The notes under the pieces are model-generated. The model was not told where the DNA came from, ran no database searches, and saw only the letters and a list, made by a program, of their open reading frames with translations. A DNA stretch of 64,000 nucleotides from Escherichia coli (GTDB lineage Bacteria; Pseudomonadota; Gammaproteobacteria; Enterobacterales; Enterobacteriaceae): assembly GCF_003334335.1 (NCBI RefSeq), contig NZ_QOWQ01000011.1. One strand, written 5' to 3'. The position numbers and the translations under genes are program-made. Below, piece by piece: positions 33,294 to 52,699 of the stretch. Position 1 is the stretch's first letter. Every line of letters starts with the position of its first letter.

Positions 33294-34391
<1,098 letters not shown>

Positions 34392-34494
34392 AAAAAAGCC
34401 CGTCCAGTGGCGGACGGGCAAACAAGGGTAACATAGGATCAATGAGGGTTAGAGCATATGCGTCTGTCGGCAAACAGACAGGGAAATACTTGTG

Positions 34495-34617
34495 CTGGAC
34501 GTAGCGTAAACGCCTGATCCGTCCAACGGTTCGGATTTTGTAGGCCTGATAAGACGCGGTAGCGTCGCATCAGGCATCTGTTGCCGGATGCGGCGTAAAC
34601 GCCTTATCCGTCCTACG
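34495..34617. repeat. REP cluster between ybiC and ybiJ
   Basis: Several REP palindromes (GTAGGCCTGATAAGACGCGGTAGCGTCGCATCAGGC, CCGGATGCGGCGTAAACGCCTTATCCG). Confidence 0.8.
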
Positions 34618-45362: not shown

Positions 45363-46010
<648 letters not shown>

Positions 46011-47052: not shown

Positions 47053-47404
47053 CCTTTCTCCCACAAATATCTAGACTTAAGTAAAGCGTGGAGTGTACTG
47101 GATATACCCAATGCTGGTTGAGCATTTGTTGAAAAAATTTTCCCCCGTTTTGACTAAAATGCGCCAGGATTGATGGAATCATTAGTCTGGTGATTAGGAA
47201 TAATCTGGATGAATGACAGGGAAAACATGCGTAATACTTACGCAGTTCTCTGAAAAAGTGATTTAAATTTAGATGGATAGCGGTGTATGGAAACGTTCTG
47301 TTACATGAAATGGCCCGTTAGACATCACAAATCGCGAAGAGTTTCCCATTAATTTTTGATATATTTAAAACTTAGGACTTATTTGAATCACATTTGAGGT
47401 GGTT

Positions 47405-47970: not shown

Positions 47971-49552
47971 AAGGTTTCGGGTCGAAAATATCGGTTCCGA
48001 GATGGTTGTAATCCACCTTCTGTAACTGGAAGTTGGTGATGTATATCGGCCCGGCTTTCTTCTCAGATATAAACGGGTATTTGATGTTAATTTCCTTCGC
48101 TTTAATCCCCGTCCACTGGGAGAAAAAGCCTAAGAAGTCATTGGCTGAGCGGCGGGCTTTAATCACACGATGCGCTTTATCGTCGCTGGAAATGACCATA
48201 AAAGGCACCTGGAAATTTTGCTGATATTTATCATCATGGGCAAGGTATTGCACGTCTTTACCGCGCTCTTTAAAGGCCAGACCGTGGTCAGAAAAGTAAA
48301 CCAGCGAGAAGCTGCTGCCGCTGTTGCGTAACTGATCGTACAGCTTGCGCAGTAAATCGTCCGTTTGCGTCATGGTATAGAGATAGCACGACGTTTCTTT
48401 CGATTGCACAAAGGTTTCGTATTTTCCTTGTGTCCTGTCGCAGGCCTGCGGATGTGAGCCCATCAGATGTAGAACAATCAGCTGCGGTTGCGAGTGCTCT
48501 TGCGCCAGCACTTGAGCGGTCATATCCAGTAACGCTTCGTCTTTGGTGTTTTTATCTGCTTCAAAATTACCTTCTTTCAGGAAGTACACTTCATCTGCTC
48601 GTTTGGCGATGCTGGCGATAGCGGTATCGTATTCGCCGATTTGACCCTGGTTGGAAAACCACCAGGTCTGGAAGCCCGCGCGATTTGCCAGGGTGACAAA
48701 GTTATCCTGAAACTGTGGTTTGCCATCGACAACGCGATTGAGCGTTAAGCCAAGCGATTTCTGCGTGGAGCCACTGGCGGCAATGTAGTCAGCAAATATC
48801 AAACCGTTAACGCTGCTGGCAAACGGGGTATTGTCCCAGTGACCGCCAAAGGCACCGAGGGCATCGCGACGCGCGCTTTCACCGATCACCACCACATAGG
48901 TCTGATACTTCGGCTTAACGGCAGTGACCGTCCAGGTATCTTTCATTCCGGAAAGTTTTGCCATCCGTTCTTGCTCTTCAATCACCTCGTTATTATTGAC
49001 GATGACATCCTTAGCAAAACGAAATACCGGATAGCCAGTATCTTTCAGTTTAAATACGCCACCCCAGGCCAGGTTTTGCACGGGAGCAACAAAAAATGTC
49101 GCCACACTGAATACCAGACACAGGCTGTCGAAGGTATTCCAGCGCGCTTTTTCATTCTCTTTTTTTCGCCTGATTGCTATTACGCCGAGCGCAAAAATAA
49201 ATAAGCCGACCAGGTAGCTGTACCACGGAAAAATCGTCAGGATTTCGGTCGACTCTTCCATATTGGTGGAGTGCAATGCCAGCAATGTATTGAAATTAGG
49301 CGCGCCGTAGGCCTGAGCAAAAGGGAAATAACAAGCCGCCACCAGCGAACTGACACCGACCAGAACTTTTTGTACGCGAGGCAATGTTCGCCATAGCAAA
49401 AGCAAAATAGCCGTAAACGCAGCGGTGTAGAGCAAACTGAAGGGGTAACCTAAGCCGAGGTTAATTAATAGCGACTGTAAAAAGTAGAACGCAGTCCACG
49501 GGCTAAATACCCGGCTACGGGTAACAAGCGATTCTTTGAGGGTTAAATTCAT
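47969..49552 (-). CDS. opgE: Phosphoethanolamine transferase
   Basis: 527 aa (formerly ybiP); N-terminal transmembrane region plus sulfatase-like domain. Confidence 0.9.
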   Translation of the reverse strand: MNLTLKESLVTRSRVFSPWTAFYFLQSLLINLGLGYPFSLLYTAAFTAILLLLWRTLPRVQKVLVGVSSLVAACYFPFAQAYGAPNFNTLLALHSTNMEESTEILTIFPWYSYLVGLFIFALGVIAIRRKKENEKARWNTFDSLCLVFSVATFFVAPVQNLAWGGVFKLKDTGYPVFRFAKDVIVNNNEVIEEQERMAKLSGMKDTWTVTAVKPKYQTYVVVIGESARRDALGAFGGHWDNTPFASSVNGLIFADYIAASGSTQKSLGLTLNRVVDGKPQFQDNFVTLANRAGFQTWWFSNQGQIGEYDTAIASIAKRADEVYFLKEGNFEADKNTKDEALLDMTAQVLAQEHSQPQLIVLHLMGSHPQACDRTQGKYETFVQSKETSCYLYTMTQTDDLLRKLYDQLRNSGSSFSLVYFSDHGLAFKERGKDVQYLAHDDKYQQNFQVPFMVISSDDKAHRVIKARRSANDFLGFFSQWTGIKAKEINIKYPFISEKKAGPIYITNFQLQKVDYNHLGTDIFDPKP

Positions 49553-49823
49553 ATGCCACTATCGTAACAAACGCCATGTGCTTACCCTGGCGTCAAGGGT
49601 CAATACCTGCAAGAGTGCGTGAAGAGTGGAAAGGGGTCCGCATCCGCGAGCCGCAATATACGCAGGGCTGCAAGAAGATAGAGCGAGCCGCCGTTCAGGT
49701 CAACTACTGACGAACAAATCTTTTGCGAAGGGGATTGCAAATCCGACAAAAAGTGGGGTTTTTCAGACCAAAACGCGTTATGCCTGCATGAAAGCAGGAG
49801 TGAAGCGGCGTACCGCGACGCCG

Positions 49824-49952
49824 CTATTTATCGGAAGGTTTATCTTGCTGCGGTTTGTTGTTGACCATATCGCACAACATAGAGAGCAGCATTAACCGTA
49901 CTTTAAAGGGAGAATGACTAAACACGCGCATACACCTCTTGAACTCATTCAT
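49824..49952 (-). CDS. mntS: Small protein MntS (42 aa)
   Basis: Manual translation of the minus strand gives MNEFKRCMRVFSHSPFKVRLMLLSMLCDMVNNKPQQDKPSDK followed by a stop. Below the ORF-track size cut-off. Confidence 0.85.
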   Translation of the reverse strand: MNEFKRCMRVFSHSPFKVRLMLLSMLCDMVNNKPQQDKPSDK

Positions 49953-50014
49953 AAGACCTCCTGACTTGCTAATCCCGTCGATCCTTGAGGGATGATTGCA
50001 TTACATACAGATAT

Positions 50015-50035
50015 AGCACAGGCTATATTATATAG
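50015..50035. promoter_or_regulatory. Candidate MntR operator in the mntS / mntR intergenic region
   Basis: Perfect palindrome GCTATATTATATAGC upstream of mntS. Confidence 0.4.
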
Positions 50036-50137
50036 CTATTGCTAAAACGTTAATTTTTTGTACCTTCGCAACTCTGGTTTACAATGTGCGCACGAAATGA
50101 GAACGCTATGTATGCGTCACCATAATGAGGAAGCACA

Positions 50138-50605
50138 ATGAGTCGTCGCGCAGGTACGCCAACAGCAAAAAAAGTGACGCAGTTAGTGAACGTGGAAGAG
50201 CACGTTGAAGGGTTCCGCCAGGTCAGAGAGGCGCATCGGCGCGAGCTTATTGATGATTACGTTGAGCTGATTTCTGACTTGATCAGGGAAGTGGGGGAAG
50301 CTCGTCAGGTGGACATGGCTGCTCGTCTGGGAGTTTCGCAACCGACGGTGGCTAAAATGCTTAAGCGGCTGGCAACCATGGGGCTGATTGAAATGATCCC
50401 CTGGCGTGGCGTGTTTTTAACGGCAGAAGGAGAGAAGCTGGCGCAGGAAAGCCGCGAGCGACATCAGATAGTCGAAAATTTCTTGTTGGTGTTGGGCGTC
50501 AGTCCGGAAATCGCCCGTCGCGACGCGGAAGGCATGGAGCACCATGTTAGTGAAGAGACGCTCGACGCTTTTCGTTTGTTTACCCAGAAACACGGTGCCA
50601 AATGA
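50138..50605 (+). CDS. mntR: Manganese-responsive transcriptional regulator (DtxR family)
   Basis: 155 aa, recognised. Confidence 0.93.
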
Positions 50606-51720
50606 GCCTGCCTTTTTTACGCACGCTGCAAGGCGATCGTTTTTTTCAGTTATTAATTCTTGTTGGTATCGGATTAAGCTTTTTCGTGCCCTTTGCACCG
50701 AAATCCTGGCCTGCTGCTATCGACTGGCACACCATCATCACCTTAAGCGGCCTGATGCTGCTGACCAAAGGTGTGGAGTTAAGCGGTTATTTTGATGTGC
50801 TGGGGCGCAAAATGGTGCGCCGCTTTGCTACGGAGCGTCGGCTGGCGATGTTTATGGTGCTGGCGGCGGCGCTGCTTTCTACCTTTCTGACCAACGATGT
50901 CGCGCTGTTTATTGTTGTTCCGCTGACTATCACGCTAAAAAGACTGTGTGAGATCCCGGTTAATCGGCTGATTATTTTTGAGGCGCTGGCAGTCAACGCT
51001 GGTTCGCTACTGACGCCAATTGGCAACCCGCAAAATATTCTTATCTGGGGACGTTCTGGTCTTTCGTTTGCCGGATTTATTGCCCAAATGGCACCGCTGG
51101 CTGGCGCAATGATGCTGACGCTCCTGCTCCTGTGCTGGTGTTGTTTCCCTGGAAAGGCGATGCAATACCATACGGGGGTGCAAACACCGGAGTGGAAACC
51201 GCGGCTGGTGTGGAGTTGTCTGGGGCTGTATATCGTCTTTCTGACGGCGCTGGAGTTCAAACAAGAGCTGTGGGGACTGGTGATTGTGGCGGCAGGCTTT
51301 GCGCTGCTGGCACGTCGCGTGGTGCTCAGTGTGGACTGGACGCTGCTGCTGGTGTTTATGGCGATGTTTATCGACGTCCATTTACTGACCCAGCTTCCAG
51401 CGTTGCAAGGCGTGTTGGGTAACGTGAGTCATCTATCTGAACCCGGGTTATGGTTAACGGCAATCGGTTTATCGCAGGTGATCAGTAACGTGCCGAGTAC
51501 CATATTGTTGCTGAACTATGTGCCGCCGTCTTTATTACTGGTATGGGCGGTAAACGTAGGTGGCTTTGGGTTATTACCCGGATCGCTGGCAAATTTGATT
51601 GCGCTACGTATGGCGAACGATCGCCGCATCTGGTGGCGTTTCCATCTCTATTCAATACCGATGCTGTTGTGGGCGGCGTTGGTGGGATATGTTTTGTTAG
51701 TTATACTCCCGGCCAACTAG
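50602..51720 (+). CDS. ybiR: ArsB/NhaD-superfamily transporter
   Basis: 372 aa polytopic membrane protein; start overlaps the mntR stop. Confidence 0.9.
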
Positions 51721-51732
51721 GGTCTGGCAAAT

Positions 51733-51766
51733 AAAAAAGGCGGATTATGAGTCCGCCTTTTGCTTT
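51733..51766. terminator. Bidirectional rho-independent terminator between ybiR and ldtB
   Basis: AAAAAAGGCGGATTATGAGTCCGCCTTTTGCTTT. Confidence 0.85.
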
Positions 51767-51778
51767 AAGTTTTGAAGA

Positions 51779-52699
51779 TTAATTCAGACGAACCGGCATC
51801 CCGGAGCGGTTTTTAATCGCTTCATCAAGAACAACCTGGTCAACATCTGGCTGACCGGTCACTGTCTGCACGCTCTTCGTCAGGGTAATTGGCACAATTT
51901 CCTGACCTTCAAACTGGGCTTCGGTGGTAGACAGCGGGTTATGGACTTCAATATAACGGCTGCCGTCTGGCTCGGTGGTCGCTTTTACCGGCTCATCAAT
52001 AAACTGTACGCGGGTACCGACCGGTACTTTCTCGAACAGGAATTTGATGTCTTCGTTACGCAGACGCACACAACCATGACTTACACGCAGGCCGATACCG
52101 AAGTTGGCGTTGGTGCCATGGATAGCATACAGGCGACCGATATAGAGTGCATACAGCCCCATCGGGTTATCCGGACCTGCCGGAACGACAGCCGGAAGCG
52201 GTTCGCCCGCAGCGCGGTACTCTGCGTGCATTTTGGCGGTCGGCGTCCAGGTCGGGCCTGCTTTTTTACGCTCAACTTTGGTGGTCCAGTTGATAGGCGT
52301 ATCTTTGCCTAACTGACCAATGCCGATCGGCAGCACGATAACGGTGTTGGTCCCTTTCGGATAGTAATAAAGACGCATCTCAGCACTGTTAATGACGATG
52401 CCTTCATGAACGGTATCCGGCAGGATCAGCTGCTGCGGAATGTTCAGTACAGTACCGCCTTTCGGCAGGAAGGTATCCACACCCGGGTTCGCTTCCATCA
52501 TATTGGAAAGCCCCATCTGGTACTCGGCGGCAAAATACTCCAGCGGCTGAGTGTTACCTTCAGGAATGGTGATCACCTGATTCTGACCAACCAGGCGACT
52601 CCCGTCGGTTGGCAGAGGATAAGTTACCGCAGAGGCGGTACTGCAAAAGCCGACAACAGCGAAGGCCGCTGCGAATAATGTTTTCAATTTCATATTCAT
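51779..52699 (-). CDS. ldtB: L,D-transpeptidase
   Basis: 306 aa (formerly ybiS), signal peptide, catalytic SHGC motif. Confidence 0.93.

Follow-up and report, generated by a model that had tools for sequence, protein, structure and literature searches.

The window analyzed here is a stretch of 64,000 nucleotides of Escherichia coli DNA. A short minus-strand open reading frame (ORF) lies in it between opgE and mntR, and the question is which gene this ORF is and how it is controlled. An earlier note had read it as mntS, the gene of the manganese-homeostasis protein MntS, had set aside a longer ORF on the opposite strand as a likely artifact, and had offered a palindrome in the promoter region as a candidate operator of the regulator MntR. 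The ORF at 49824..49952 is almost certainly E. coli mntS, carried on the RybA transcript, divergent from mntR, and under predicted two-box MntR control.

Identity of mntS and the ORF antisense to it

Translation of the minus strand from 49952 to 49824 gives the MntS peptide, MNEFKRCMRVFSHSPFKVRLMLLSMLCDMVNNKPQQDKPSDK, followed by TAG (42 amino acids plus the stop, i.e., 43 codons). The ATG-started ORF is present at 49824..49952 on the minus strand in a mechanical ORF list and is absent from the ORF track because its 42 amino acids fall below the 60-amino-acid cut-off. The peptide is identical to UniProt MNTS_ECOLI (Small protein MntS) and to K-12 b4705. The curated cut-off of the NCBIfam equivalog small_MntS (NF033226), 36 bits, served as the family test of identity; the peptide scores 96 bits (E = 6.3e-28) over residues 1-39 of 42. 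Two annotated RefSeq records place the mntS coding sequence at exactly 49824-49952 of the window, with opgE on one side and mntR-ybiR on the other. The reading of the minus-strand ORF as mntS is therefore confirmed by peptide, coordinates, and family, and no observation speaks against it.

Positions 48000-52000 are base-for-base the same as E. coli K-12 MG1655, and the window coordinate is the K-12 MG1655 coordinate minus 803045. The window gene and K-12 b4705/MNTS_ECOLI agree in the 42-amino-acid sequence, in position with respect to mntR and opgE, and in the RybA transcript; they do not differ and are the same gene. The locus is ordinary, already known, and annotated. Over its full length, however, the window departs from K-12 MG1655. 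Compared position by position, the two differ by an indel near 4.3 kb and by scattered SNPs, with a SNP cluster at 18-25 kb; otherwise they are nearly identical, with single differences, e.g., at 45910. Other annotated features of the window also fall below the 60-amino-acid cut-off, namely the small proteins YliM (47287-47352, plus strand) and YbiE (34458-34517, plus strand) and the small RNA ZbiJ (34390-34486, minus strand).

MntS is widespread in E. coli and its relatives. When 5426 complete E. coli genomes were searched with 581 bases from around the ORF, 5422 matched over 80% or more of the query, and the features annotated beneath these matches are mntS, at the place of the ORF, and mntR. 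A homolog search returned 136 proteins. Among the matches listed, the sources that name them say MntS or use a generic hypothetical or uncharacterized label. The hosts are Escherichia, Shigella, Citrobacter, Salmonella, Klebsiella, Kluyvera, Kosakonia, Enterobacter, Trabulsiella, and Silvania. The window protein fits the 41-43 amino acid size of the family and its conserved N-terminal core, MNEFKRC...FSHSPFKVRLML; 20 columns are invariant across 18 homologs, including C7, H13, P15, and F16. Precomputed annotation gives Pfam PF26599 for all the homologs. A Pfam-A profile search with MntS found no match, in a copy apparently lacking PF26599, and no solved structure matches the protein.

The conservation of the locus was followed in E. 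coli and eight other genera, whose loci were fetched by exact-protein look-up and joined in a nine-way DNA alignment. The other loci compared include those of Salmonella, Citrobacter, Klebsiella, Kluyvera, Kosakonia, Trabulsiella, and a further Enterobacterales genome. All eight other genera share the gene order, with ybiR-mntR on one strand and, on the other, mntS and then opgE. In the window, mntS likewise lies between mntR and opgE, adjoining and divergent from mntR. The latter, encoding the manganese-sensing repressor of mntS, is annotated and appears in the ORF list as a plus-strand ORF of 155 amino acids at 50138..50605.

The mntS frame is unbroken in all nine genera, at a length of 41-43 amino acids. 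Over codons 1-35, variable columns number 10/35, 6/35, and 26/35 at codon positions 1, 2, and 3. Pairwise differences among the nine genera number 188, 86, and 434 at the same positions, and differing codon pairs are synonymous in 331 cases vs. non-synonymous in 223. This bias of substitution toward the third position points to a translated sequence; mntS evolves as protein-coding sequence. The Shine-Dalgarno sequence AGGAGG, read from the minus strand at 49957..49962, lies 4 nt 5' of the mntS ATG; the GGAG core of this sequence does not vary among the nine genera.

The ORF list also contains an 89-codon ORF on the plus strand, 49626..49895, with a GTG start, that overlaps mntS. The alternative in which this ORF is the true gene, and its minus-strand counterpart a coincidence, has scarcely any probability at all. 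It is the longer of the two, and older GenBank records of K-12 DH10B and DH1, together with some IMG records, named it as a "predicted" or "hypothetical" protein. Its 89-amino-acid product, however, has no match in NCBIfam or Pfam, and it is absent from the current RefSeq annotation. The matching segment in the eight other genera (249 to 280 bases across genera) has stops in every frame, with a longest open run of 28-73 codons. The ORF also crosses a conserved promoter-like element of opgE and the hairpin beside the mntS stop codon, both described below. Broken in 8/8 other genera and matching no family, it is an artifact, as had been suspected, and not a gene. The current K-12 record is missing b0816 between b0815 and b0817, and the antisense ORF is conjectured to be this withdrawn entry.

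The mntS promoter and its predicted MntR boxes

The K-12 annotation of RybA (see below) places the 5' end of the mntS transcript at 50019. Read from the sequence, TATAAT on the minus strand at 50027..50032, 7 nt upstream of this end, is the putative -10 hexamer; TAATAT at 50030..50025, with a 17-bp spacer, is an alternative. The -35-like hexamer TTAACG (50048..50053, minus strand), with 6/6 bases invariant in the nine genera, is the candidate -35 element. A sigma-70 promoter scan did not report the mntS promoter, a miss attributed to the distance of only 15 bp between TTAACG and TATAAT.

An MntR pattern, AYATAGC-N4-GCTATRT, was taken directly from the upstream regions of K-12 mntH and mntP, with mntS left out. 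The upstream sites are AACATAGCAAAGGCTATGTT for mntH and TTTAGCCAAAGCTATGT and ACATAGCTTAGGCTATAT for mntP, and a log-odds matrix was built from these three training sites only, in both orientations. The pattern matches the window exactly once, at 50011-50028. It matches with one mismatch at 45914-45931 and with two at 50030-50047. The chance expectation in the window is 0.00 matches at up to one mismatch and 0.43 at up to two. Among 63,983 positions scored with the matrix (mean -33.5, sd 9.8 bits), 50011-50028 ranks first with 21.6 bits and 50030-50047 second with 16.5 bits.

Two boxes are predicted from these matches. Box 1 (ATATAGC-ACAG-GCTATAT, 50011..50028) has 16/18 columns invariant in the nine genera, and box 2 (ATATAGC-TATT-GCTAAAA, 50030..50047) has 14/18. 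Both have the 18-bp ATAGC-N4-GCTAT inverted-repeat architecture, with 0 and 2 mismatches, respectively. In minus-strand order, the promoter reads TTAACG (50053..50048), TTTTAGC-AATA-GCTATAT (50047..50030), a single A, and ATATAGC-CTGT-GCTATAT (50028..50011). Box 1 covers -9 to +9 of the mntS start site, and box 2 covers -11 to -28, filling the gap between the -35 element and the -10 region. The boxes are one base apart, and their centers are 19 bp apart. Positions 50000-50053 are the best conserved intergenic block among the nine genera and are conserved above the mntS coding sequence, in which 60% of columns are invariant. Two MntR sites are described as overlapping the mntS promoter (PMC11275975), and MntR:Mn represses mntS (PMC4361602). 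By position and conservation, the mntS promoter is occupied by two predicted MntR boxes.

A third box one 19-bp step downstream, at 49992-50009, was considered and rejected; neither half-site fits by eye, and the position is outside the top 12 matrix matches. Positions 50000-50010 (CTGTATGTAAT, +10 to +20 of the mntS transcript) have 9/11 positions invariant in the nine genera and do not score as an MntR box with the matrix.

The palindrome of the earlier note, GCTATATTATATAGC, occupies 50022-50036 and is centered on the -10 region of the mntS promoter. It occurs once in the window; at up to two mismatches, chance alone would still give only about 0.1 matches. Written as GCTATAT-T-ATATAGC, it brings together the right half of box 1 and the left half of box 2, with one base in the middle. 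It is very improbable that an MntR dimer, or some other regulator, recognizes these 15 bp themselves, although the palindrome is perfect, single in the window, and placed on the -10 region. The mntH and mntP sites are all of the form ATAGC-N4-GCTAT, and the outward-facing arrangement GCTAT-N(3-7)-ATAGC is found at neither gene. The 18-mers in the register of the palindrome score -26.6 to -37.8 bits with the MntR matrix, i.e., at background. By the matrix and the comparison with mntH and mntP, the palindrome alone does not fit the recognition architecture of MntR.

The other genera point the same way. The perfect 7-1-7 palindrome is present in 3/9 genera, and its invariant parts are the GCTAT and ATAGC cores only. 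The inner arms vary and lose their symmetry (Salmonella, for example, has GCTATAAAACATAGC), whereas conservation extends to the outer half-sites, which make up the rest of both MntR boxes. In six genera TATAAT is replaced by TAAAAT, TACAAT, or TAAAAC. A background-level register between two top-ranked boxes marks the palindrome as the junction of two real boxes, and where palindromic boxes abut, such a palindrome between them is unavoidable. The palindrome is thus real and lies inside the predicted MntR operator, as a by-product rather than as the unit that MntR would recognize. The earlier proposal had its place right and its register wrong, for the palindrome takes one half-site from each of two boxes. 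A matrix scan of the promoter, which had been suggested as the check, divides in the same manner, ranking the two boxes first and second and leaving the palindrome register at background.

The mntH and mntP operators share the 18-bp AYATAGC-N4-GCTATRT architecture with the mntS boxes and differ in arrangement. The mntS boxes abut on the core promoter, whereas the mntP boxes start 39 bp apart and far upstream, and mntH has one full box. A position on the core promoter fits repression of mntS, and a position far upstream fits activation of mntP (PMC11275975). The mntS boxes are spaced as in the operators of Bacillus subtilis mneP and mneS (PMC11275975), and this equal spacing suggests that MntR dimers may bind cooperatively at mntS. 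In B. subtilis, the paired sites of mneP and mneS activate exporter genes, whereas the mntS pair overlaps the promoter and represses.

Several further observations concern the surroundings of the boxes. A candidate mntR promoter, TTGTAC-17-TACAAT, is seen by eye at 50058-50086 on the plus strand, with an ACAATG core that is invariant in the nine genera. The promoter scan near mntR gave instead ATGAGA-18-CATAAT at 50097-50126. The candidate mntR -35 is about 11 bp from MntR box 2, which makes autoregulation of mntR conceivable. The third rank of the matrix, CCATAGCAAAAGCAAAAT at 49391-49408 (12.7 bits, three mismatches), lies within the opgE coding sequence and is probably a chance match, helped by spacer bases like those of the mntH site.

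The one-mismatch match at 45914-45931, GTATAGCACCGGCTATGT, ranks fourth among the 63,983 positions. This MntR-type box lies 48-65 bp upstream of the start codon of dps (coding sequence 45363-45866, minus strand), and the single difference from K-12 MG1655 at 45910 is beside it. Yamamoto and colleagues reportedly named dps as an MntR target in 2011. A figure legend places dps among the genes affected by Mn-MntR (PMC4361602).

The RybA transcript

The mntS mRNA is the RybA transcript, annotated in K-12 as the ncRNA rybA (b4416, 852725-853064), which corresponds to 49680..50019 on the minus strand of the window with the 803045 offset. RybA occurs as several RNAs, 205 to about 400 nt long, with a common 5' end (PMC4361602). 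An 8-bp G+C-rich hairpin starts inside the mntS stop codon (49804..49825, minus strand; fold of -13.8 kcal/mol). It is conserved, with 16/20 columns invariant over 49805-49824 in the nine genera. A U-rich tract follows the hairpin on its 3' side in 6/8 of the other genera and is degenerate in E. coli, which has UUCACUCCUGCUUUCAU there. The hairpin is likely a terminator or 3'-end stabilizer of the short RybA/mntS transcript. A terminator scan of the region found nothing; the E. coli hairpin has no adequate U-run. The decayed tract agrees with the several longer RybA species (PMC4361602). A second, small hairpin in the 5' UTR (49974..49992, minus strand) is predicted by RNAalifold. In this hairpin 97.8% of cells are paired, and compensatory changes occur in 2/5 pairs; support for the predicted structure is modest.

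The locus could instead be mainly, or additionally, a non-coding regulatory RNA in which the small ORF is secondary. The K-12 rybA feature over 49680-50019 and the conservation of the 5' UTR and the 3' hairpin speak for this reading. So does the repression of aroF and aroL by RybA under peroxide stress reported by Gerstle et al. 2012, as cited in PMC11878033 and PMC4361602; the former cites RybA as an Hfq-independent regulatory RNA acting on aroF and aroL. The substitutions in the mntS ORF, however, are of the coding type, and its start codon and Shine-Dalgarno sequence are conserved. [quoted passage not shown] The full 340-nt RybA RNA folds no more stably than shuffled sequence (z = 0.00). 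Against Rfam (49400-50300, E ≤ 1), no RybA family was obtained; the one match, a snoRNA inside mntR, is due to chance. No curated RNA family matches RybA, which is defined here by the K-12 annotation. An additional role of the RNA is unlikely but worth keeping in view, and a locus that is RNA only is hardly credible. The protein-coding reading of mntS is preferred.

Downstream of mntS, a promoter-like element, TTGACC-17-TATCTT, lies at 49675-49703 on the minus strand, with both hexamers conserved in the nine genera. The element probably serves as the opgE promoter. By annotation, RybA ends inside it, at 49680, and the U-tract in E. coli is decayed, so long RybA isoforms would read into this element. 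The opgE leader (49515-49600, minus strand) contains a conserved inverted repeat, CCCTTGACGCCAGGG. A conserved ATGGCGTTT in the leader opens a 20-codon upstream ORF (49577..49515), which runs over the opgE start codon (49552) in a different frame. K-12 has no annotated feature in this leader (49515-49600).

Manganese control and the presumed origin of MntS

The arrangement of the boxes suggests a simple switch. When manganese is plentiful, Mn-loaded MntR dimers would sit on the two adjacent 18-bp inverted-repeat boxes. The two Mn-MntR dimers would span the mntS promoter from -28, at the edge of the -35 element, as far as +9, and transcription would be off. The means of repression may be promoter occlusion, which would exclude RNA polymerase. 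When manganese is scarce, the boxes would be vacated and the 42-amino-acid MntS would be made. From the literature, MntS would then raise cytoplasmic manganese, since it binds and inhibits the exporter MntP (bioRxiv 10.1101/2023.06.02.543501). MntS also self-associates when manganese is present (bioRxiv 10.1101/2023.06.02.543501).

For three conserved features at mntS no explanation was found, namely 50000-50010, the 5'-UTR hairpin, and the terminator-like hairpin. A layer of mntS control beyond promoter occlusion by MntR, in which read-through of long RybA could couple manganese status to the expression of opgE, is improbable.

In Rahnella and Sodalis, the SitA proteins linked to MntR have signal peptides that are reported to be homologs of MntS (bioRxiv 10.1101/2023.06.02.543501). 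These signal peptides and MntS reportedly have a common PF motif and similar length and are functionally interchangeable (bioRxiv 10.1101/2023.06.02.543501). Unlike the SitA signal peptides, MntS is encoded by a stand-alone ORF and has neither the AXA cleavage motif nor the mature SitA domain. MntS presumably arose from such a peptide.

As a small regulatory protein, repressed by MntR and inhibiting MntP, MntS is a textbook case, and the known picture is unchanged. The locus illustrates how a length cut-off on an ORF track hides real small-protein genes and keeps a longer, spurious antisense ORF instead. The useful refinement concerns the operator, where the eye-catching palindrome would be a by-product of two abutting MntR boxes.
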